DNA of 38,714 nucleotides from a candidate division Kazan bacterium RIFCSPLOWO2_01_FULL_48_13 (lineage in GTDB: Bacteria > Patescibacteriota > Kazan-3B-28 > UBA10110). The notes under the pieces were generated by a model. That model was given only the letters and a program-made list of their open reading frames with translations, was not told the DNA's origin and did not search any database. Of this stretch, positions 1,338-31,783 are shown in pieces. Both the position numbers and the translations under genes were made by a program. Every line of letters begins with the position of its first letter. Within the stretch, counting starts at the first letter, position 1. Location: positions 97,073 to 135,786 of the forward strand of contig METE01000004.1 in assembly GCA_001771275.1 (NCBI GenBank), in the 5' to 3' direction.

Positions 1338-2125
1338 ATTGCGATTAGGTAGTCTCTATCGCTCCCCACTGGACATGCGTGTCTAACGCATCCAGCGAGT
1401 CTCTTTGTCTAATCCATTTGATTTTTGCGACTCCTTCTGATGTCAGATGTTCCTTGCGCGCCATCATAGTGGCTACTGTGCAGAACTTCTCGAACTGCCA
1501 GATTTTCTTAGCCTGCAATGGATATCTCTGGAAAAATGGTATCACTTTGCCAGCGATATCAGACAAATTACTGACCTTGTACTTTACATGCGGCCGCCAT
1601 TTATCATACCGTTGATAATTCAGGTGATAAATTTTACCGCAGCCAAGAACATCTTTAATTTGTTGAAGGATTGCTTCATCATCTTCTCGAAGTTCAATTT
1701 CGAACAATAATCGAACTTCCGCCAAAGCATCACCGTTCTTGTTGATAGTAATGCTAAAGCATCCTTCCCCATCAACGAAACCGACAATGTAGTTTGGATC
1801 AAGCATTGAGTTCACCCCTTCGTCTGCTTTAATTATAAGGCAAACTACTATGGGATCAGCTGACTTCCTATCGGCGCTTACCAACTACTCCTTGCCAATA
1901 GGATCTCCCTGGGTTACGCATCAGGCTATTTCTGACATTCCCACGCGGGCTCAAGCGATGTTTCTTCCCCTGTGTACACGACAAGGTCGAAACGCCCTTT
2001 AATGCGTAAGACTATCATTCGTATGTTGGACCCTTCAGGCTTGCCCTTACGGGAGAAGCCCTGTCCTCAACTATAAAGTCGGATTTACACCGACTAGTCC
2101 GATGCGCTGCCAGGCGCATTTATTT
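1338..2125 (-). mobile_element. 788-nt intervening sequence in the 16S decoding-centre sequence (E. coli about 1396/1397), carrying a LAGLIDADG gene; intron class unresolved
   Basis: The universal CUUGUACA|CACCGCCCGU sequence is split. The exon resumes at 1337 (gacgggcggtg, 1327-1337) and stops at 2126 (tgtacaag). Group-I-like strings are present (GACUA...UAGUU, GAUAGUC, AGAGACUA), but the boundaries are not U|...G|. Confidence 0.7.
1345..1806 (-). CDS. LAGLIDADG homing endonuclease, single-motif (I-CreI-like size)
   Basis: The motif YIVGFVDGEGCF is present. The ATG at 1806 is preceded by AAGGGGTGA. The longer track ORF (to 1884) starts further upstream without an SD. The stop is TAA at 1345-1347. 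The gene lies entirely inside the 16S insert. Confidence 0.8.
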   Translation of the reverse strand: MLDPNYIVGFVDGEGCFSITINKNGDALAEVRLLFEIELREDDEAILQQIKDVLGCGKIYHLNYQRYDKWRPHVKYKVSNLSDIAGKVIPFFQRYPLQAKKIWQFEKFCTVATMMARKEHLTSEGVAKIKWIRQRDSLDALDTHVQWGAIETT

Positions 2126-2561
2126 TGTACAAGACCCGAGAACGTATTCACCGTAGCATGGCTGATCTACGGTTACTAGCGATTCCGGCTTCATGCAGGC
2201 GGGTTTCAGCCTGCAATCCGAACTGAGACCGGTTTTCAGGGATTAGCTCCACCTCGCGGTTTGGCTACCCTCTGTGCCCGGCCATTGTAGCATGTGTGTC
2301 GCCCAGGCCATAAAGGCCACGCTGATTTGACGTCATCCCCGCCTTCCTCCTTGTTAACCAAGGCAGTCTCGTGTGAAAAATACAACACACAATGGGGGTT
2401 GCGCTCGTTACCCGACTTAACGGTACACCTCACGGCACGAGCTGACGACAACCGTGCAGCACCTGTCTATGCTGTCTCGAAAGAGGGCTCAAGTTTCCTT
2501 GAGCTTGCAACACGATGCAAGACCTGGTGAGGTTCCTCGCTTAGTATCGAATTAAACCACG

Positions 2562-2604
<43 letters not shown>

Positions 2605-2718
2605 TAACCTTGCGGCCGTACTCCCCAGGCGGGATACTTAACGCGTTAGCTACGGCACTGAGGGGACCGATGCCACCAATGCCTAGTATCCATCGTTTAC
2701 AGCGTGGACTACCGGGGT

Positions 2719-3734
2719 CAAACAGTATATTACTATACAGATTGGACTATATCATTCTCTGAACTTTGCTCTTTGTAGTTTTTCCACTTGGCTTTCTTCA
2801 GTTCATAGTACTGTTGCACTATTTCCAAAGAAAACTTAGAAAGAGCCGCGACTTCAGAGATCCAGCGTTGTTGAAGTTGATGATTGTGATACAGAAGAAT
2901 AAATTTTGGGATCATTTTTTCCACCGCCAGATGCGGTAGAATAATTCGCAGAAGTGATTGCAGTTGCTCGGAGGAGTTTAACCACAGCCGCACCTGATCA
3001 GGCCTTTGCCTGTTCTTGGGGGCGACAGTTGTCTCAATCTGCCAAACCACCTTCAAGTATTTCTGGAGTAAAGTTACACCCGGTTTGGTAAAACCATCCG
3101 TACAAATTACCCCTTTTCTGCCGTTAGCTATTATTGAGCCATCATCTTGCCACCAAATGGCCAGGGACAACGGGGTCAATAAATTAAGCCACTTCCTTCT
3201 GATCAAGAATTTACCGTGAGGATGAGTAAGTTTATAAAGTTCGGTGAGCGCTGGCAAAGCCAGGCTTTGGTACCTCCACTTTATTTTTCCCCATCCGTCT
3301 CGACCGTCCTTTGTTTGCCGCCACGAATTATTCTGAGAAGAGATTTCATTCAATTGTTTTACTTTCCAATCAAAGTAGCTCTTCTGTTTTTCGGAATGGC
3401 GAAACGAAAAACGGGCATTCACATAGGTCCGATGGACTTTTAACGATCCATCACCTAATATCGAGCCGAAAATAATCGCTCGAGCCGTTTCAGACAAGGG
3501 TATGATTTGCCTCATAATTTTGCAATTAATTGCTATACCCTCTGTCACAGTCAACTTCATAGTCTCTACGGGGTCAATACACGCTACGCGCGTACGACTT
3601 CCCTCGGGATTGTCCATCACGGGCCGGTAACCCGAATGTAATGGAGTTTCCCCGATACAGCTGAATGCTCATCTCGACGTCGCCGCCGAGAGGGACACCC
3701 TTCGTCACTATATTTAATGAGCGGTGACGGATTT
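2719..3734 (-). mobile_element. 1016-nt intron in 16S at the 785-806 site (E. coli about 794/795), carrying a double-motif LAGLIDADG gene
   Basis: GGAUUAGAU|...|ACCCCGGUAGUCC is split. Exon 1 ends in U and the insert ends ...CUGUUUG (omega-G-like, complement of c2719). It shares the 16-nt string CCCCGUAGAGACUAU-type P7 motif with the 1000-1252 intron (3559-3574 = 1069-1084). Confidence 0.8.
2733..3620 (-). CDS. LAGLIDADG homing endonuclease, two-motif (monomeric type); start uncertain (GTG 3620, ATG 3617 or ATG 3560)
   Basis: Motifs are IIFGSILGDGSL and LAIWWQDDGS. The stop is TAG at 2733-2735, only 14 nt before the intron 3' end. Confidence 0.8.
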   Translation of the reverse strand: MMDNPEGSRTRVACIDPVETMKLTVTEGIAINCKIMRQIIPLSETARAIIFGSILGDGSLKVHRTYVNARFSFRHSEKQKSYFDWKVKQLNEISSQNNSWRQTKDGRDGWGKIKWRYQSLALPALTELYKLTHPHGKFLIRRKWLNLLTPLSLAIWWQDDGSIIANGRKGVICTDGFTKPGVTLLQKYLKVVWQIETTVAPKNRQRPDQVRLWLNSSEQLQSLLRIILPHLAVEKMIPKFILLYHNHQLQQRWISEVAALSKFSLEIVQQYYELKKAKWKNYKEQSSENDIVQSV

Positions 3735-4125
3735 ATCTAATCCCGTTCGCTCCCCACGCTTTCGCTCCTTAGCGTCAGAAATGGCCCAGCAGACTGCCTT
3801 CGCCTTTGGTGTTCTTCTCGATATCTACGGATATTACCCCTACACCGAGAATTCCATCTGCCTCTACCATTCTCAAGATCAGCGGTTTCGAACACCCTTC
3901 TCCGGTTGAGCCGGAGTCTTTAATGTTCGACCTACTGGTCCGCCTACGAGCGCTCTACGCCCAATAAATCCGGATAACGCTCGAGCCCTACGTATTACCG
4001 CTGCTGCTGGCACGTAGTTAGCAGGCTCTTATTCTTACGGTACCGTCATAATCTTCCCATAAAAAAGAGGTTTACAATCCGAAGACCTTCATCCCTCACG
4101 CGGCATTGCTGCGTCAGACTTTCGT

Positions 4126-4188
<63 letters not shown>

Positions 4189-4614
4189 CTGGCTGGTCAT
4201 CCTCTCAGACCAACTATCGATCACAGCCTTGGTAGGCCATTACCCTACCAACTAGCTAATCGAACGCAGGCCACTCCTTGGGCGATAAATCTTTACTCAG
4301 CACTTATTTCAACAGACTAAAAATTAATCCACTGAAATAAGTGCTGAGACTATCGAGAATTATCCTGCCTTTCGGCAGGTTATGCTCGACCCAAGGGTAT
4401 GTTCCCACGCGTTACTCAGCCGTCTGCCGTGCACCCGAAGTGCACTCGACTTGCATGTGTTAGGCATGCCGCCGGCGTTAATCCTGAGCCAGGATCAAAC
4501 TCTCAAAAAAGTGAGTTCAGACTGCATAGCAGCTGACATCACTAAGAGTTAATCCACCCATCTCCAGTTTTGGAAAACTGGGGATGGGGAAATTGAATTT
4601 GAATTGATTGTGAG

Positions 4615-10519: not shown

Positions 10520-11227
10520 TTAAACTATGGTTACCGCGCCCGAACCGGCATCCACTTGCGCCTGGAACTTGGCTCCCGACGCGTCAGTAGCTTTATAGGT
10601 AATAAACCAGTTCAGCTGTTTGCCAGCAGGCCGGGCCAGGATTATAGAGGCCTCAAAGGTCTTGTGCTGGGCGCGAAAGCTCGCGCCGCCCTGGGCTTCG
10701 GCTAACTGCAGCGCTTTGGCGTAGTTGATCTTCCAGTACTCGGCCGGAATATCCAGGACGCTAAAGTCCAGCTCAAAATCTTGGATTGGCATTAAGAACC
10801 GCTTCATCGGATCCAGATTATTGCGCGGCACATTAACCAAGAAATAATAGTCCGGCTTGGAGACCGAACTATAGATATAGTAGTTGGTCGACAGGCCAAA
10901 AGTGTTCGAGAGTGAATTAATGTACTTAGAAGAGACCAGCACCAGTATCGCATCGGGCTGGATCAGCCGAATAAAGTCAGTGGCCTCTTTGTTCTCCCGC
11001 AGCAGCTGCGGATGGATAACCGTCGAATCTGCCAAACCGCTCTCGGGAGCAGTAGTCCCAGGATAAGCGGTAAAATCGGGGTTCTGATTAGTGGGGGTAT
11101 TGCTCAGGCTGTTATCAATCGAGTCGTCGGTATTATCGATCGCGCGCCGCTGACAACCGGCGGCTGACAGCGTCATCAAAAACGCCGCTCCTATCAATCC
11201 CCAAACTAACCATTTTCGCTTTACCAT
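10520..11227 (-). CDS. Lipoprotein, paralog of 9883-10518
   Basis: Signal peptide with the lipobox LSAAGC. It shares a C-terminal domain with the neighbouring gene. Confidence 0.65.
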   Translation of the reverse strand: MVKRKWLVWGLIGAAFLMTLSAAGCQRRAIDNTDDSIDNSLSNTPTNQNPDFTAYPGTTAPESGLADSTVIHPQLLRENKEATDFIRLIQPDAILVLVSSKYINSLSNTFGLSTNYYIYSSVSKPDYYFLVNVPRNNLDPMKRFLMPIQDFELDFSVLDIPAEYWKINYAKALQLAEAQGGASFRAQHKTFEASIILARPAGKQLNWFITYKATDASGAKFQAQVDAGSGAVTIV

Positions 11228-11334
11228 CCCGTTAGAAATCTACTTAGCGTATATGTTCGGCTATCTGTTTATTTTGGTTGTCCCGATCAGCGATTTCTAA
11301 CGGGACAAGTTATCTCCTATTTAAATATAACAGA

Positions 11335-21160: not shown

Positions 21161-21250
21161 CCGTGGGGAGCATAGATTGGCAATCCTACCAACCTTTGTT
21201 TTTTGGATTTTCGTATTCACATTTTTATATTTGATTCTTGTTGGGCTGAT

Positions 21251-21323
21251 GCTGATGCGACCCGATGGTACGGGCGTTCGGCTCATAACCGAAAGGCTAT
21301 GGGTTCGAATCCCATCATCAGCA
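21251..21323 (+). tRNA. tRNA with CAU anticodon (Met or lysidine-modified Ile2); no encoded CCA
   Basis: Acceptor GCUGAUG/CAUCAGC, anticodon arm UUCGG-CUCAUAA-CCGAA, T arm AUGGG-UUCGAAU-CCCAU. The D stem is weak. Confidence 0.75.
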
Positions 21324-21330
21324 TTTTTTT

Positions 21331-21406
21331 GGCGATGTAGCTCAGAACCCGGCAGAGCGCTCGGCTCATAACCGAGAGGTCGCGGGTTCGAGTCCCGCCA
21401 TCGCCG
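21331..21406 (+). tRNA. tRNA with CAU anticodon (Met or Ile2); no encoded CCA
   Basis: Acceptor GGCGAUG/CAUCGCC, D arm GCUC...GAGC, anticodon arm CUCGG-CUCAUAA-CCGAG, T arm GCGGG-UUCGAGU-CCCGC. Confidence 0.85.
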
Positions 21407-21486
21407 TTCTTTGAAAATTCTTATTCTGTGTTATATTTTTTGGCTCTTCTGGGCGCGGAATGCGTTGAAGAGCACAGGAGTTTGAG

Positions 21487-25458: not shown

Positions 25459-26484
25459 TTAGCGGTCTTTTGGCTTAAATCGGCTAACACTAATCTTATC
25501 ATACGCTTTTATCAGGAACAATTTGCCCGGCAGTTGCTTATAAGAGGTCGGGTTTTTACTATTGATTACCTTGCGCATCTCGGCGATATGGATGGATTTA
25601 TAGTCCTGTCGGCTCCCGCGCACCTCACCGATCGTCCACAGCAATAACTCATTCTGGAGATAGGGGTGTAGCTTATTGAATAGGGCCAGTCTAAAACTGA
25701 CTGAGCCTCTCCCCCTCCGTAGCTTAACTACTTTCTTACTCTGAGCTAAATAAACGCCCAGCAGATCTTCTAATCCAGAGAGGTTATCAGCATTTCGCAA
25801 GATTACCTCATCGATCTGTGGGCTAACTCTTCTTAACATCGGCAAGACTTGATGGCGAATGCGATTTCTGGTGTACACTGTCTGACGATTGGTCTCATCC
25901 TCCCGATAGCCAAAATGCAGAGTTTTAGACAGCCGTTTTAAATCGGCCTTGGTTGCTCGTAATAGCGGCCGCCAGATACTGCCTTGCCACTCACTCATTC
26001 CCGATAGCCCCCGCACTCCCGCCCCGCGCAGCCAGTTCATCATAACCGTCTCCACCTGATCATCAGCCGTGTGTGCTACTACAATCGCTTTGGCGTGATA
26101 GCGCTTGGCCACCCGATGCAAAAAATCATACCGCGCTTTTCTGCCGGCCTCCTCCAAGGTCAACTTCTGCCGCTTAGCCAACGACCTAACCGTCACGCTG
26201 TTAGTCACCACCGATAATCCCAAGCGACGCCCCACATCCTTAACCCATCGCTCATCCCCAGCCGCTCGGCGGCGCAGTTGATGATTGAGATGGGCAACTA
26301 TCAGCCGCCAATCATATTTAGCCGCCAACGCAACTAACAGATACAGCAGGCTCATCGAATCAACTCCTCCCGACACCGCCACCACCAAAGCAGCTCGCCG
26401 CGGCGGGAGTTTCCCCTGTTCGATCTGGGCTAACAGTTTATCTGCCAATTGCACGCCTACATTATATAGGATGACGATAGACAA
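25459..26484 (-). CDS. tilS: tRNA(Ile)-lysidine synthase TilS
   Basis: PP-loop SGGVDS and a TilS-like body. It lies immediately upstream of ftsH, a common arrangement. Confidence 0.85.
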   Translation of the reverse strand: MSIVILYNVGVQLADKLLAQIEQGKLPPRRAALVVAVSGGVDSMSLLYLLVALAAKYDWRLIVAHLNHQLRRRAAGDERWVKDVGRRLGLSVVTNSVTVRSLAKRQKLTLEEAGRKARYDFLHRVAKRYHAKAIVVAHTADDQVETVMMNWLRGAGVRGLSGMSEWQGSIWRPLLRATKADLKRLSKTLHFGYREDETNRQTVYTRNRIRHQVLPMLRRVSPQIDEVILRNADNLSGLEDLLGVYLAQSKKVVKLRRGRGSVSFRLALFNKLHPYLQNELLLWTIGEVRGSRQDYKSIHIAEMRKVINSKNPTSYKQLPGKLFLIKAYDKISVSRFKPKDR

Positions 26485-26665
26485 ATTTTAGCTTTTGGCC
26501 TACCTTAAATTACGCTATGCTATTGAAGGAGACCTCCGGTCTAATGCCCAATATTCAATTTCCAATGGGACAACAGAAGCTATTGCTTTCCAATCATTGA
26601 ATATTAAACATTGGATGCTTGAGAATTGGATATGGGAGATTGGATATTAACGCGTAGCGTTTTAT

Positions 26666-26810
26666 GCCAGGGTAGCTTCCGCCGTCGTTCAATCTTATCG
26701 CAAATAGGTCATTAGCCTCTTGCGATATAGATATCACTATGGTGGACAGGCAGCGATAGCCTCCGGCCCAGAGGGCCTCCAGGCCCGGCGGGAGCAGTGG
26801 ACTCGCCCCG
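26666..26810 (+). pseudogene. tRNA-Met-like 5' part whose D loop is replaced by a 116-nt structured element (E1, 26678-26793)
   Basis: gccagggtagct + [tccgccg...cggcggga] + gcagtggactcg. The D stem is kept (GCUU/GAGC). It ends with ctcgccccg, which is complementary to 27017-27025. Confidence 0.5.
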
Positions 26811-26822
26811 ATTAAAAATTTT

Positions 26823-26922
26823 GCCAGGGTAGCTCAGTGGTAGAGCAGTGGGATTCACCCCGTTAGAAATTAGCCAGCGTAGCTCAGTGGTAGAGCAGTG
26901 GGATTCACCCCGTTAGAAATTA
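26823..26922 (+). repeat. Two tandem 50-nt units, each a tRNA-Met 5' half (30 nt) plus the tail attcaccccgttagaaatt
   Basis: Units are at 26823-26872 and 26873-26922. The third repeat phase starts the intact tRNA at 26923. Confidence 0.85.
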
Positions 26923-26997
26923 GCCAGCGTAGCTCAGTGGTAGAGCAGTGGACTCATAAGCCATTGGTCACAGGTTCGAATCCTGTCGCTGGCACCA
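26923..26997 (+). tRNA. tRNA-Met (CAU), CCA encoded
   Basis: Acceptor GCCAGCG/CGCUGGC, D arm GCUC-AGUGGUA-GAGC, anticodon loop CUCAUAA, T arm ACAGG-UUCGAAU-CCUGU, followed by ACCA. Confidence 0.88.
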
Positions 26998-27008
26998 AAA
27001 TTAGCTGG

Positions 27009-27066
27009 ATTTCTAACGGGGCGAGTAAGCCATTGGTCGTGAGTTCGAATCTCACCCCTGGCACCA
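27009..27066 (+). pseudogene. tRNA 3' half (anticodon loop to CCA) preceded by a 13-nt complement of the 5'-half tails
   Basis: atttctaacgggg (27009-27021) is the reverse complement of ccccgttagaaat. This is followed by cgag-taagccatt-ggtc-gtgag-ttcgaat-ctcac-ccctggc-acca. The acceptor strand pairs with gccaggg of 26666 and 26823, not with the intact tRNA. Confidence 0.6.
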
Positions 27067-27120
27067 GTAAAACAATAAAAAATATCAAATATAAAATAAA
27101 AAACCACCTCCCCCCTTGTC

Positions 27121-27346
27121 TCCGCCATCCGCCAGAGCCCAAGGCTCCCCTTTGGGGCTGGCGGAGGCGGACTGAAAACACTTTACTGGGCCAAAGGCCC
27201 CCCTTTGGGGCCGTAGGCTTATAAATAACTTACGACACAGCCCTCCGTAGTCCGTCAGCTGACGGACGGAGGATGGGTTCAGGATCCAGGCCTAGATTCC
27301 TCGAATCCCCAGCATTCTCTGGGCAAGCAAGTCCGGGGATGACCAA
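27121..27346. repeat. Cluster of nested GC-rich hairpin modules (same family as 9738, 14514, 15211 and 17618)
   Basis: It contains tccgcc...ggcgga hairpins, the 32-nt module at 27188-27219 (= 17695-17726), ccctccgtagtccgtcagctgacggacggaggatggg (27241-27277, also in 28686-28722 and 30124-30160), and the end ggggatgac. Confidence 0.75.
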
Positions 27347-27377
27347 TAAAATCAATAAGCCGTTAATGGATTAGAAT

Positions 27378-27788
27378 ATGGCTAAAGATTCTGCCGAACA
27401 AATAAAACGCCAACGCAAGTTGCGCTCCCAAATTCTAACGGCGATCTTCGCCAGTATCTTTGTGTATATGTTGGTAGGCACTATCGAGGCGGTGTGGCAA
27501 AACTACGCTATCAATAAGGAGGTAGCCAAATTGAGGGCAGAGATCGTCCAACTCCAAGAAGAAGGCCGTCAAGTAAAGTACCTGATCGCTTACTTAGGCA
27601 CTGAGTCCTTTAAAGAGCGGGAGGCCCGCCGCAAGCTGGGATATAAAAAACCGGGGGAACAGGTGTTAGCTTTACCCAACTCCATTCTGGAAGAACTAAC
27701 CCCGGGCCAGGCTAACGATAGTACTGATCCCGAGGCCAAACCAGAGCTATCGAATCCGCAAAAGTGGCAAGAGTTCATCTTCGGCTAA
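27378..27788 (+). CDS. Septum formation initiator (FtsB/DivIC-like) protein
   Basis: 136 aa with one TM helix and then a coiled coil (NKEVAKLRAEIVQLQEEGRQVKYLI...ARRKLGYKKPGE), typical of the family. Confidence 0.55.
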   Translation: MAKDSAEQIKRQRKLRSQILTAIFASIFVYMLVGTIEAVWQNYAINKEVAKLRAEIVQLQEEGRQVKYLIAYLGTESFKEREARRKLGYKKPGEQVLALPNSILEELTPGQANDSTDPEAKPELSNPQKWQEFIFG

Positions 27789-27968
27789 CTCAGTTATAAT
27801 AAAAACTGATTAGTCTGATTTACTCAAACTAATCAGTTACTCCCCAAAAAACAGTATTTGATATTTTCTATTTGATATTAATTTGGGTCTGTAGCTCATC
27901 CCCGAAGGGGCCCCTGTGGGGTGGTGAGTAGTCCAATTATTAAAATAATAGAGTTCGCCTCCTCGGGT

Positions 27969-28040
27969 GGGCCTGTAGCTCAGCGGTAGAGCAGCCCCCT
28001 CATAAGGGGTTGGCCCTTGGTTCGATCCCAAGCGGGCCCA
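27969..28040 (+). tRNA. tRNA with CAU anticodon; no encoded CCA; flanked by complementary leader and trailer
   Basis: Acceptor GGGCCUG/CGGGCCC, D arm GCUC-AGCGGUA-GAGC, anticodon arm GCCCC-CUCAUAA-GGGGU, T arm CUUGG-UUCGAUC-CCAAG. The leader ctcctcggg (27959-27967) pairs with the trailer cccgaggag (28041-28049). Confidence 0.85.
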
Positions 28041-28069
28041 CCCGAGGAGCGAGAGCCTTCTTTCAAAGT

Positions 28070-28110
28070 CTTGGTTCTCCGCCCGCTGGCGGACCCAAGC
28101 GGGCCCACCA
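28070..28110 (+). pseudogene. tRNA 3' fragment (T arm + acceptor + CCA) with a 16-nt hairpin inserted in the T loop
   Basis: cttgg-ttc-[tccgcccgctggcgga]-c-ccaag-cgggccc-a-cca. This is identical to the 3' end of the tRNA at 27969-28040 except for the insert and the CCA. A matching 5' fragment, gggtctgtagctca, lies at 27886-27899. Confidence 0.6.
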
Positions 28111-28159
28111 CTCCAGTCTGGACAGTCGTTCGTTCCTCTGATAGCATTGCCCTTGTCGA

Positions 28160-28234
28160 CGCGGGGTAGAGCAGTAGTAGCTCGCCAGGCTCATAACCTG
28201 GAGGTCGTAGGTGCAATTCCTACCCCCGCTACCA
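28160..28234 (+). tRNA. Initiator tRNA-fMet (CAU), CCA encoded
   Basis: CGCGGGG-UA-GAGC-AGUAGUA-GCUC-G-CCAGG-CUCAUAA-CCUGG...CCCCGCU-A-CCA. The 5' CGCGGGG...GAGCAG...GCUCG and the mismatched 1:72 pair mirror the E. coli initiator. Confidence 0.85.
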
Positions 28235-28369
28235 TGTCGTAGCAAACTTCACTAACTCGCCCCGACCAACTAAGTTGGCGGGTCTTATCGTTCCATTACT
28301 ACTCCTTCCCAAATCACATCATTTAAAACATCCCCGTTGAGGGGATGTTTTAAATTGAAGGTAACAACC

Positions 28370-31585: not shown

Positions 31586-31605
31586 TGGCTCCCGGGGTCG
31601 GACTC
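31586..31605 (-). repeat. Direct copy of the last 20 nt of tRNA-Asn (T-loop to CCA)
   Basis: tggctcccggggtcggactc is identical to 33651-33670 and 33435-33454. Confidence 0.9.
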
Positions 31606-31674
31606 CCGCCGGCGTTCAATCTCATTCAAAGTAGATCATCTGTCTCTTTGAATGTAGATATCACTTTGGCGGAC
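31604..31674. ncRNA. Structured element E2, homolog of E1 (26678-26747); function unknown
   Basis: The conserved flanks cgttcaatct and tagatatcact.tgg.ggac enclose a hairpin. The hairpin sequence differs between copies (tatcgcaa/ttgcgata vs cattcaaag/ctttgaatg) but the pairing is kept. Confidence 0.5.
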
Positions 31675-31783
31675 CTTGCTCCCCTCTTGCTTCGGAACAT
31701 CAGCTGTTCCTTCGCATCGGTTCTCGCTCAGACCTCATCAACAAATCGTTCCCTAGCCCCGATTATATCGGGGCGACGGACGA

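Follow-up and report, generated by a model that had tools for sequence, protein, structure and literature searches.

A tRNA gene with the anticodon CAU, placed between tilS and divIC in an uncultured bacterium from groundwater that belongs to the candidate phyla radiation (Patescibacteria/CPR), is interrupted at its anticodon loop, and an intact tRNA(CAU) gene lies within the interruption. Our best explanation is that the resident gene (tRNA A) was invaded at the anticodon loop by a cassette that has no protein gene but carries a complete tRNA gene (tRNA B). As a rough estimate, we give this reading a probability of 0.78. Judging from sequence comparisons, the outer halves are most likely relics, and not the parts of a spliced split tRNA.

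The locus lies within the window, as we call the 38,714-nt stretch of DNA that was analysed. A preliminary description of the window had listed several 5' pieces, an intact tRNA, and a 3' half. By direct reading and exact string search, we found every piece where it had been placed:

26619..26648 (+), promoter-like sequence (TTGAGA-18-GATATT), with the outer tRNA 18 nt downstream
26666..26677 (+), positions 1-12 of the outer (resident) tRNA A, GCCAGGGTAGCT, an exact string
26678..26793 (+), E1, structured insert of 116 nt within the outer 5' piece, in place of ~10 nt of its D loop/arm
26794..26804 (+), positions ~24-34 of the outer tRNA A, GCAGTGGACTC, ending with C34 of the anticodon
26805..26822 (+), variant left arm L', G-CCCCGATTAAAAAT-TTT, with CCCCGATTAAAAAT itself at 26806-26819
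26823..26872 (+), unit 1 (50 nt): A-type 5' half, GATTCA, left arm CCCCGTTAGAAAT, TA
26873..26922 (+), unit 2 (50 nt), a hybrid: tRNA B-like start (GCCAGCG), unit 1-like end
26923..26997 (+), inner tRNA B, anticodon CAU, CCA encoded; intact (found by ARAGORN; 73.4 bits with the Rfam tRNA model)
26998..27008 (+), spacer AAATTAGCTGG between inner tRNA B and the right arm
27009..27025 (+), right arm ATTTCTAACGGGG (27009-27021) plus CGAG; inverted partner of the left arms
27026..27066 (+), 3' half of the outer tRNA A, from T36 to A76, CCA encoded, ending with CCCTGGCACCA; intact
27067..27102 (+), AT-rich 36-nt tail, 100% shared with the sister genome L008

As had been described, the tail of the 5' halves and the leader of the 3' half are perfectly complementary: the arms CCCCGTTAGAAAT and ATTTCTAACGGGG pair at 13 of 13 positions. 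An inverted-repeat search also recovered the complementarity of ctcgccccg and cggggcgag. The two tandem 50-nt units are present as well (unit spacing 50/50, 94% identity), but unit 2 (26873-26901) begins like the inner tRNA and not with GCCAGGG. Similarly, the CCCTGGC of the 3' half was said to pair with the 5' pieces, but it is matched only by the outermost piece (piece 1) and by unit 1, as unit 2 has GCCAGCG instead. The 5' half in unit 1 is 29 nt long (GCCAGGG...GCAGTGG), and unit 2, like unit 1, ends with GATTCA and the left arm. The inner flank of L' (ACTCG) is complementary to CGAGT at 27022-27026, and a variant arm that resembles L' occurs in another nested locus, L079 (CCCCGTTTAAAAT). 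In our reading, L' marks where an older cassette, lying further out, ended on the left. The AAATTA in the spacer repeats the 6 nt directly before tRNA B. (We rejected a retro-copy origin for tRNA B, which found no further support besides its mature-tRNA boundaries and these flanking AAATTA repeats.) The promoter-like site could drive transcription of all the nested parts, though it is weak: 1 site was found while 1.5 were expected in shuffles.

We then compared the locus to related genomes. In the sister genome L008, the site is empty. An uninterrupted 75-nt tRNA is made up of the window's 29-nt 5' half, ACTCA, and the 41-nt 3' half, which is 100% identical to the window's. The flanks of this empty site are the same as the window's, including the upstream flank directly before 26666. 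(Outside the AT-rich tail, the window and L008 are ~77% identical.) In L001/L002, L005, and L007, too, the spacer between tilS and divIC holds a single plain tRNA. The simplest filled site is in L004 (GCA_016936175.1), a separately assembled MAG from Zodletone. There, the order is 5' half, GATTCA, arm, TA, tRNA B, spacer AAATTGGCTGG, arm, CAAGT, and 3' half, so the junction of the 5' half with GATTCA and the arm is the same as in unit 1. The insert is just ~125 nt. The inner tRNA is identical to tRNA B of the window (75/75), and the cassette region is 96.8% identical over 157 nt, as compared to 76.5% for the surrounding genes. tRNA B is ~87% identical to both of the resident types (it differs from tRNA A at ~10 of 75 positions) and is thus foreign to both lineages. 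The outer halves are decaying in relatives: in L004, the outer 3' half has lost its T arm. Among species-representative genomes, the junction of the left arm with tRNA B was found only in L004's genome, and it had no match in viral contigs. Sequencing runs that contain words from the cassette represent the same organism at low depth, and no new hosts were found among them.

Could the pieces be scars from the integrase-mediated integration and excision of islands or prophages, that is, stacked attL/attR remnants? tRNA genes are classical integration sites, and the anticodon loop is one of the sublocations used. P4-type elements with tyrosine integrases, islands, and prophages insert in an essential tRNA gene and carry sequence that restores a working tRNA; the same is presumed for our locus, and repeated events likewise stack tRNA fragments. 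Also, a tRNA next to the site in L005 has an att-scar-like duplicate of its 3' end ~200 nt downstream. However, such elements carry the displaced 3' (or rarely 5') part of the gene, so that the restored tRNA is a hybrid; they span kilobases, have direct repeats at their ends, and contain an integrase gene. In our locus, what is duplicated is 5' halves along with the entire inner tRNA, as opposed to 3' parts joined to the 5' part of the resident gene. tRNA B does not have the hybrid make-up of resident and incoming parts. The L004 insert packs a whole tRNA into ~125 nt between inverted, not direct, repeats, and there is no integrase or other recombinase among the neighbouring genes. Overall, we consider integrase scars to be improbable. 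One reading in the preliminary description, scars of repeated recombination at the anticodon loop, comes close, in that recombination would have remodelled the outer shells, but it is incomplete, as the core event appears to be the insertion of a palindrome-bounded cassette with a whole replacement tRNA.

The arms themselves are not confined to tRNA genes. A 19-mer that represents them (ATTCACCCCGTTAGAAATT) is present in at least 120 metagenome contigs. In 100 of 120 copies, the inverted partner of the arm is 3-164 nt away, and the interiors are unrelated. Identical 4-nt direct repeats, of varied sequence, flank 20 of the 29 arm pairs that were not constrained by the search pattern. (In 2000 shuffled trials, the mean was 4.4 and the maximum was 11.) By these comparisons, the 13-nt arms are the terminal inverted repeats of a widespread MITE-like family with 4-bp target duplications. 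Thus, the complementarity of the tail and the leader is not specific to tRNA. Other features of MITEs are found as well: inverted repeats that match at 13/13 positions, small size, no coding sequence, multiple copies, and empty sites in relatives. Copies of the family are mostly at gene starts. (They often lie on start codons and add a fixed N-terminal peptide to housekeeping proteins.)

At the tRNA cassettes, the 4-bp target duplication is absent: L004 and L079 have the flanks TTCA...CAAG, and the window has TTCA or CTCG on the left and CGAG on the right. None of the 120 loci contained a full-length insertion sequence or transposase-bearing element with the same ends (arms 400-4000 nt apart, no further arms between them, and a duplication on either side). 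Rfam, at gathering thresholds, has no family for the conserved arm-bearing region of L089/L086. We also rejected an arm-borne promoter for the inner tRNA, as the TAGAAA is too close to G1. Another rejected idea was that CAU is targeted because its antisense, ATGAG, resembles the ATGAA target of the family; L079 involves a tRNA-Ala, so this cannot be general.

MITEs and Rickettsia palindromic elements (RPEs) insert in or beside genes, including RNA genes; they are tolerated in frame at protein termini and form hairpins in transcripts. RPEs, and MITEs such as the Correia elements of Neisseria, are small, lack genes, have inverted repeats at their ends, and are present in many copies (PMC3184786, PMC10969869). 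The arm family is similar, with its 13-nt terminal repeats, 4-bp duplication, and at least 120 copies. Unlike RPEs and MITEs, the cassette carries a complete tRNA gene that replaces the disrupted one, it lacks a target duplication, and no autonomous partner was found in the 120 loci. In the literature, we did not find any description of an RPE or a MITE with a complete tRNA gene that replaces the one it disrupts.

The arrangement is not unique to this site. A second nested locus of the same kind lies further downstream and is shared with L007:

27885..28110 (+), second nested locus

It begins with an outer 5' fragment that has a hairpin in its D loop, followed by the leader CGCCTCCTCGGGT. Next is an intact tRNA-CAU (27969-28040) that ends with ACCC, then the trailer ACCCGAGGAGCG, and then an outer 3' fragment (CCCAAGCGGGCCCACCA). 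How far the outer fragments reach is not the same in the window and in L007, and the arms differ by two compensatory changes, which suggests that the arm helix is maintained for some function. In L079, a tRNA-Ala(CGC) lies between the same kind of arms inside a broken tRNA-Ala. The junctions are TTCA...CAAGT, both tRNAs have G3:U70, and the D loop of the outer one contains a hairpin insert. A further case is a Logan contig from the same samples as the window, in which the 3' end of a tRNA is followed by AAAATTTCTTTAGTTCGGGGCA and then by a 3' half again. In every case that we have seen, the tRNA in the cassette matches the host tRNA.

The preliminary description had also suggested that the outer halves form a functional split or intron-containing tRNA. 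If so, RNase P and RNase Z would free the embedded tRNA, and the outer halves, held together by the 13-bp helix of tail and leader, would either be trimmed and ligated or function as a two-piece tRNA tethered by the helix. The spliced product would join ...GCAGTGGGATTCA to TAAGCC...CCCTGGCACCA. Some of the evidence fits. RNAfold predicts a nested cloverleaf (z -5.9) in which the outer tRNA has both its acceptor arm and its T arm, and in which the arm helix continues the anticodon stem. In the window, the 5' half in unit 1 and the outer 3' half are still perfect, and removing the exact segment from arm to arm would restore a TTCATAA loop with the CAU anticodon. The arms of the second locus keep pairing through their two compensatory changes. 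We attribute the perfect outer halves to the recency of the insertion, although the intron model predicts the same.

Nevertheless, we have several reasons to consider a functional split tRNA very improbable. First, the helix is made of generic terminal repeats, which belong to a mobile-element family found at hundreds of sites unrelated to tRNA. Second, the halves are not kept intact: in L004 the outer 3' half is without its T arm, and in the window the D arm of the outermost 5' piece is replaced by E1. Also, two further 5' halves would compete for the single right arm. Third, the junction does not fit. Archaeal split, tri-split, and intron-containing tRNAs, as in Nanoarchaeum and Caldivirga, require a bulge-helix-bulge, the endonuclease EndA, and a ligase, and both of the halves are conserved (PMC4033280, PMC3218864, PMC10714607). 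The bulge-helix-bulge consists of a 3-nt bulge, 4 bp, and a 3-nt bulge at the exon-intron borders. The junction in the window, with the pairing read by hand, is a 3-nt bulge (A37 A38 G39), 4 bp, a 1x1 mismatch, and 13 bp; there is no second bulge and hence no bulge-helix-bulge. The 4-bp helix is weaker in L004. We scanned the nine neighbouring ORFs (which include TilS, FtsH, MurJ, DivIC, Fic, and a HATPase protein) and found no EndA- or RtcB-like protein among them, and bacteria are not known to have a tRNA splicing endonuclease. Fourth, ARAGORN, which the preliminary description had recommended, makes no split or intron-containing call; even with introns of up to 300 nt and lowered thresholds, it reports only the inner tRNA. 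Finally, a single plain gene suffices in the relatives. The similarity to archaeal split tRNAs does extend to a 5'-half tail that is complementary to the 3'-half leader and to a break at the anticodon loop, and mobility has been proposed for the archaeal tRNA introns as well (PMC4033280, PMC3218864, PMC10714607). In contrast to the archaeal cases, the helix here is a transposon end, the halves decay in relatives, and a whole tRNA lies inside. For a short time after an insertion, the outer halves may still work together as two pieces of a tRNA tethered by the helix, though we think this less likely than the selfish-element idea given below.

Chance does not explain the repeated and complementary pieces. 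The 13-mer family (at most 2 mismatches) has 8 matches where 1.23 are expected, and none of 100 shuffles reached 8; the 22-nt string from the D arm occurs 3 times where 0 are expected. Logan contigs, with 0 or 1 mismatch, span 26400-26858, 26829-26908, 26872/26879-26951, and 26939-27102. Counts of 31-mers give a copy number for unit 2 of at least 1. (L130, a contig from JGI, shows no difference over 6026 nt, but it may derive from the same data.) An origin in place, by local duplication or by template switching at a palindrome, or else an assembly artefact, with no foreign cassette in either case, seems to us hardly credible: short-read assemblers and replication slippage do mishandle a 50-nt periodicity with identical 22-nt cores, and a local unequal crossover is the best explanation for unit 2, but tRNA B differs from the resident tRNA A while agreeing at every position with the inner tRNA in L004, each junction is backed by k-mer contigs from several runs, and different lineages hold the empty and the filled sites.

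Returning to the invasion of tRNA A by a cassette, we propose the following course of events. The cassette would consist of the complete tRNA(CAU) gene B bracketed by the 13-nt inverted repeats of the MITE-like family. Its insertion would destroy the resident gene, but the cell would survive because the insert would bring that tRNA along in working form. tRNA B is presumably the working gene and the source of the mature product, while the outer halves are probably silent. The whole nested locus would be transcribed from the resident promoter, and tRNA B would be released by RNase P at its 5' end and by RNase Z or exonucleases at its 3' end. The long arm helix may aid release as a site for double-strand cleavage. 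The hybrid unit 2 could be the product of an unequal crossover, or of slippage during replication, that involved an A-type and a B-type 5' half 50 nt apart. Piece 1 with L', together with unit 1, may be the shells of an older cassette, one nesting level further out, whose 3' half and right arm would have been lost by deletion between directly repeated right arms. Such a deletion would explain why the surviving right arm matches the left arm in its core and L' in its flank. E1 would be a later insertion into the dead D arm. The nest of three levels and the later deletion are a reconstruction; alternatively, there may have been just a tandem triplication, after which the first arm diverged.

How did the cassette reach these genes? 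We favour uptake of DNA followed by homologous recombination at the tRNA halves, because the tRNA-bearing copies lack the 4-bp duplication and have odd junction sequences in common. Ordinary transposition seems less likely, as it would not explain the arrival of cassettes that lack target duplications. A similar process is the "intronless homing" of T4 SegB, in which an endonuclease gene spreads into tRNA regions by recombination with co-conversion of the flanks. However, there is no endonuclease gene in or beside the cassette. A more speculative idea, which we think is doubtful, is that nested cassettes form a class of selfish elements that can do without their own nuclease. What moves would be the unit "tRNA half, arm, spare tRNA, arm, tRNA half," with the outer halves serving as homology arms that are conserved across species after uptake, and the hosts being naturally competent, recombination-prone bacteria. 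The hairpin-folded insert would be copied into a matching tRNA gene, the spare tRNA would save the host, and repeated rounds would build shells like those of a Russian doll. If the arm helix directs an RNase III-type release, then a DNA parasite would be controlling the expression of an essential tRNA.

Another precedent for insertion at this position is the group I introns in the anticodon loops of bacterial tRNAs, such as tRNA-Ile(CAU) of Azoarcus and tRNA-Leu of cyanobacteria (bioRxiv 10.1101/2020.01.27.920355). These resemble our locus in position (CAU tRNAs included) and in size (~200 nt). But for 26500-28300, Rfam searches with the gathering thresholds and with E up to 5 both came back without an intron family, and hence without a ribozyme core, and the rescue would be by a spare gene instead of by splicing. 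Two modes of selfish DNA in RNA genes are known: self-splicing introns, and integrases that rebuild the end of the gene. A palindromic element that brings a spare for the essential gene that it breaks would be a third. We found no description in the literature of this nested arrangement or of nested tRNA genes in CPR bacteria.

Archaeal split and intron-containing tRNAs are used in arguments about the origin of tRNA, and the nested bacterial tRNA resembles them. The cause here appears to be different, as the sister genomes show an empty site, a simple filled site, and a decayed shell. When tRNA halves or nested tRNAs are encountered in CPR genomes, annotation as split tRNAs should be avoided, and the shells can inflate tRNA counts. 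That genomes which are otherwise ~76% identical have the same inner tRNA is a sign that tRNA genes often pass from one lineage to another.

Finally, E1 has no Rfam family at E up to 5, and neither do the arms or the spacer. E1 is a composite of a core (~26678-26757) and a GC-rich hairpin module (26760-26794), and its fold has z -2.8. The core is shared with another element in the window, E2 (31596-31680), and the hairpin module is also present in L055, L092, and L008. E1-like copies in other contigs have 6-7 differences.

We read positions 26400-27400 of the window directly and placed each piece of the tRNA locus by exact string search. The resident gene, a tRNA with a CAU anticodon (tRNA A), is broken into halves, and a second, intact tRNA(CAU) (tRNA B) lies inside it.

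Pieces of the nested tRNA(CAU) locus
26666-26677, plus strand: start of the outer 5' piece, GCCAGGGTAGCT (string search)
26678-26793, plus strand: E1, a 116-nt insert (direct reading)
26794-26804, plus strand: continuation of the outer 5' piece, GCAGTGGACTC (string search)
26805-26819, plus strand: G and L', a variant of the left arm L, CCCCGATTAAAAAT (string search)
26823-26872, plus strand: unit 1, a 29-nt 5' half starting with GCCAGGG, then GATTCA, CCCCGTTAGAAAT and TA
26873-26922, plus strand: unit 2, built like unit 1 but starting with GCCAGCG
26923-26997, plus strand: intact tRNA B, anticodon CAU (ARAGORN; Rfam, 73.4 bits)
between tRNA B and the right arm, plus strand: spacer AAATTAGCTGG
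27009-27021, plus strand: right arm ATTTCTAACGGGG, then CGAG
27026-27066, plus strand: 41-nt 3' half of tRNA A, ending in CCCTGGCACCA

These are the pieces and the order of the preliminary description, save that it grouped unit 2 with the GCCAGGG pieces; the acceptor strand of unit 2 is in fact of the inner-tRNA type (GCCAGCG). A repeat finder recovered the 50/50 spacing and the inverted repeats, and the motifs of the locus far exceed chance expectation. Every junction is covered by Logan contigs of several runs, without mismatch or with one, and a 6-kb JGI contig (possibly from the same data) is identical to the window. Given the short k-mers in Logan contigs, the copy number of unit 2 is fixed only as at least 1.

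In the outermost 5' piece, E1 stands in place of about 10 nt of D-loop sequence. It is a composite of a GC-rich hairpin module, which also occurs in L055, L092 and L008, and a core shared with E2, a related element at 31596-31680. The core includes a hairpin whose arms differ between copies yet still pair. Short GC-rich hairpin modules like CCTCCGGCCCAGAGGGCCTCCAGGCCCGGCGGGAG (window 26760-26794 and 27120-27280) recur in L055, L092 and L008. One is present in L086 and absent from the counterpart in L089, so these modules look like separate mini-insertions.

We then compared the locus with its relatives, which were obtained via TilS homologues. The organism behind the window is from groundwater, and the closest TilS proteins carry the label Patescibacteria. 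The locus has tilS upstream on the minus strand, with ftsH and murJ next to it, and divIC downstream. The same order is conserved in the relatives, whose flanking genes are 74-78% identical to the window's at the DNA level.

Relatives carry either a plain gene or an interrupted gene with a decayed shell. A single plain tRNA(CAU) occupies the tilS-divIC spacer in L001/L002, L005 and L007. In L008, the plain 75-nt tRNA consists of the window's 29-nt 5' half, ACTCA, and the window's 41-nt 3' half; the upstream flank is the same as the window's and the 36-nt AT-rich tail is identical. Because the L008 tRNA equals the joined halves with the same flanks, the pieces starting at 26666 and ending at 27066 belong to a single resident gene, as its two ends. 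Over the tRNA A 3' half and the non-coding tail, 77/77 positions agree (window 27026-27102, L008 1915-1991), and the flanking genes of the two are ~77% identical. The sequences point to a recent exchange of this 3' segment between the two lineages.

The simplest filled state is in L004 (GCA_016936175.1, a Zodletone MAG). Its order is a resident-type 5' half (GTCAGGG...), GATTCA-CCCCGTTAGAAAT-TA, tRNA B, AAATTGGCTGG-ATTTCTAACGGGG-CAAGT, and the resident 3' half, from which the T loop and some of the T stem are gone. This outer gene is apparently free of selection. The inner tRNA is identical to tRNA B at 75/75 positions. Identity between the window and L004 is 96.8% in the region of the cassette (the arm-tRNA-arm insert), versus 76.5% for the neighbouring genes, and tRNA B is only ~87% identical to either resident type, so the inner tRNA is foreign to both hosts. 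One and the same cassette occupies the matching site in two distinct resident alleles; with tRNA B, it is known from these two lineages only.

What are the arms? Scanning metagenome contigs for ATTCACCCCGTTAGAAATT gave matches in at least 120 contigs. Among the matches listed, 100 of 120 copies have an inverted partner 3-164 nt downstream, with unrelated interiors. Identical 4-nt direct repeats flank 20 of the 29 listed arm pairs that are free of the search-pattern constraint, versus a mean of 4.4 and a maximum of 11 identical pairs in 2000 trials of right-flank shuffling. The repeats varied (TGAA, TTCA, TTTA, TAAA, TTGA, CTCG, TGGA, TGTC). This is the pattern expected of a transposable element that ends in 13-nt inverted repeats and duplicates 4 bp of its target. 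Since the arms are mobile-element ends, the perfect complementarity of tail and leader is a property of the vehicle and not of tRNA biogenesis. The family behaves like Rickettsia palindromic elements and miniature inverted-repeat elements (MITEs). The locus agrees with MITEs in most respects, except that it shows no target duplication and that no autonomous partner is known (no autonomous element with these ends was found among the listed arm loci). We would class the locus as a palindromic mobile element whose cargo is a self-complementing tRNA. We found no description in the published full-text literature of a bacterial tRNA gene nested in its own kind.

Three other explanations were considered. 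First, integrative elements that rebuild a tRNA end likewise rescue an essential tRNA, but it is improbable that the pieces are integrase scars: the inverted repeats and the gene neighbourhood do not fit, the duplications are of 5' halves, and the inner tRNA is complete. Second, the outer halves resemble archaeal split tRNAs, and group I introns occupy the same position in tRNA anticodon loops, but sequence features that define each of these three known systems are missing here. A functional split or intron-containing tRNA is very improbable, as the shells are decayed, there is no bulge-helix-bulge, and the helix is of generic origin. ARAGORN, which the preliminary description had suggested as a check, called no intron-containing tRNA when run with introns allowed. 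Third, the arrangement almost certainly did not arise in place or by misassembly, because the foreign inner tRNA is identical in a separately assembled genome (L004) and junction contigs support each junction.

For the mobile-element reading, the starting state would be of the L004 type, A5'-L-B-R-A3', where R is the right arm. The 5' halves of A and B are 50 nt apart and have 22-29 identical bases in common; a single unequal crossover or slippage between them could have produced unit 2, with its B-type start and A-type junction with L. The outermost 5' piece is native to C34 and is followed by L'; a similar left arm occurs in L079, an unrelated metagenome contig. The sole right arm has a 13-nt core that matches L and an outer flank, CGAGT, that complements the L' flank ACTCG. 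Such a mixed arm is the expected remnant if a three-level nest, A5'-L'-A'5'-L-B-R-A'3'-R'-A3', underwent deletion between its two directly repeated right arms (R and R').

The three tRNA-bearing copies lack the 4-bp target duplication and have junctions TTCA...C(A/G)AGT in common, and the junction common to L004 and the window is an unusual one of 13 nt, which exceeds the native sequence by one base. For these reasons we favour a spread in which cassettes arrive on DNA that is taken up and recombines homologously via the outer tRNA halves, rather than repeated fresh transposition. The 100% identity of the tRNA A segment and tail between the window and L008 suggests that such exchange takes place at this locus. 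This route of arrival is the least certain step. Transcription would be driven by the resident promoter (a weak promoter-like site is at 26619-26648), tRNA B would be freed by RNase P and 3' processing, and the predicted long helix of the arms may be cleaved by a double-strand RNase.

Other tRNAs are nested as well. In L079 (860-1100), a tRNA-Ala(CGC) between CCCCGTTTAAAAT and ATTTCTAACGGGG-CAAGT sits within a broken tRNA-Ala, in its anticodon region. G3:U70 is present in both tRNAs, the outer D loop bears a hairpin insert, and an extra 3'-end copy, CTAGGTCCA, lies downstream. A Logan contig (runs X1 and X2) has a tRNA 3' end, AAAATTTCTTTAGTTCGGGGCA, and then the same 3' half as at 27026-27066 again. 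Its depth is above that of the window genome, which suggests another organism in the same samples with a nested tRNA(CAU) and a third arm variant.

A second nested locus in the window (27885-28110), at the neighbouring tRNA(CAU), is shared by L007 (1590-1900). The outer fragments have decayed to different extents in the two. The arms differ by two compensatory base-pair changes (CTCGGGT/ACCCGAG in the window, CTTTGGT/ACCAAAG in L007), so the helix around the inner tRNA seems to be maintained. The inner tRNA ends in ACCC instead of ACCA, and the upstream arm is altered to match (GGGT versus TGGT in L007). In L001 (2941-3015) and L002 (2657-2731), the counterpart of the tRNA at 27969-28040 is in the opposite orientation. 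The inversion is exact, from the 5' end to CCA, and no arms remain; an inversion via inverted arms on either side, lost afterwards, would fit.

Elsewhere, the arm family (L009-L128, and a variant copy in the window at 11226-11306) is mostly at gene starts. Among the matches listed, the left flank is ATGAA in 30 of 79 arm pairs with a downstream open frame, and A precedes the TGAA duplication in 30 of 31 cases, so start codons (A|TGAA) are apparently where the element inserts. Translation reads the downstream arm as ATT TCT AAC GGG GTG AAT, so that unrelated proteins (resembling MurC, nucleoside diphosphate kinase, topoisomerase, and membrane proteins) gain N-terminal tags, for example MEKKNNKISNGVN. 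The listed matches include 18 with a frame open across the entire element and 47 with an in-frame ATG inside it. Several arm copies also lie in a conserved non-coding region of ~300 nt (L028, L039, L055, L086, L089, L092, L098, L118, L127), which had no match in Rfam. In L089 (e.g. 130-480), it is upstream of a membrane-protein gene resembling a TRAP-transporter small subunit. The GC content of the contigs with this region looks higher than that of CPR genomes, so the range of the arms may extend beyond CPR.

The window's 16S rRNA gene (2075-4510) is 2436 nt long, versus a 1533-position model, and is interrupted by an insert with a LAGLIDADG_2 ORF (2733-3620). Just downstream of it (1345-1902) are another LAGLIDADG ORF and a match to group II intron D1-D4. 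Besides the broken genes, five intact tRNA genes with CAU anticodons lie in 7 kb around tilS (21250-21407, 26923, 27969, 28160). Only the one at 28160-28234 is initiator-like (C1:A72). tRNAs A and B may be of either the elongator Met or the Ile2 isotype. The neighbouring tRNA at 27969 (C4:G69, C5:G68, C29:G41) looks more like the TilS substrate, judging by E. coli identity elements.
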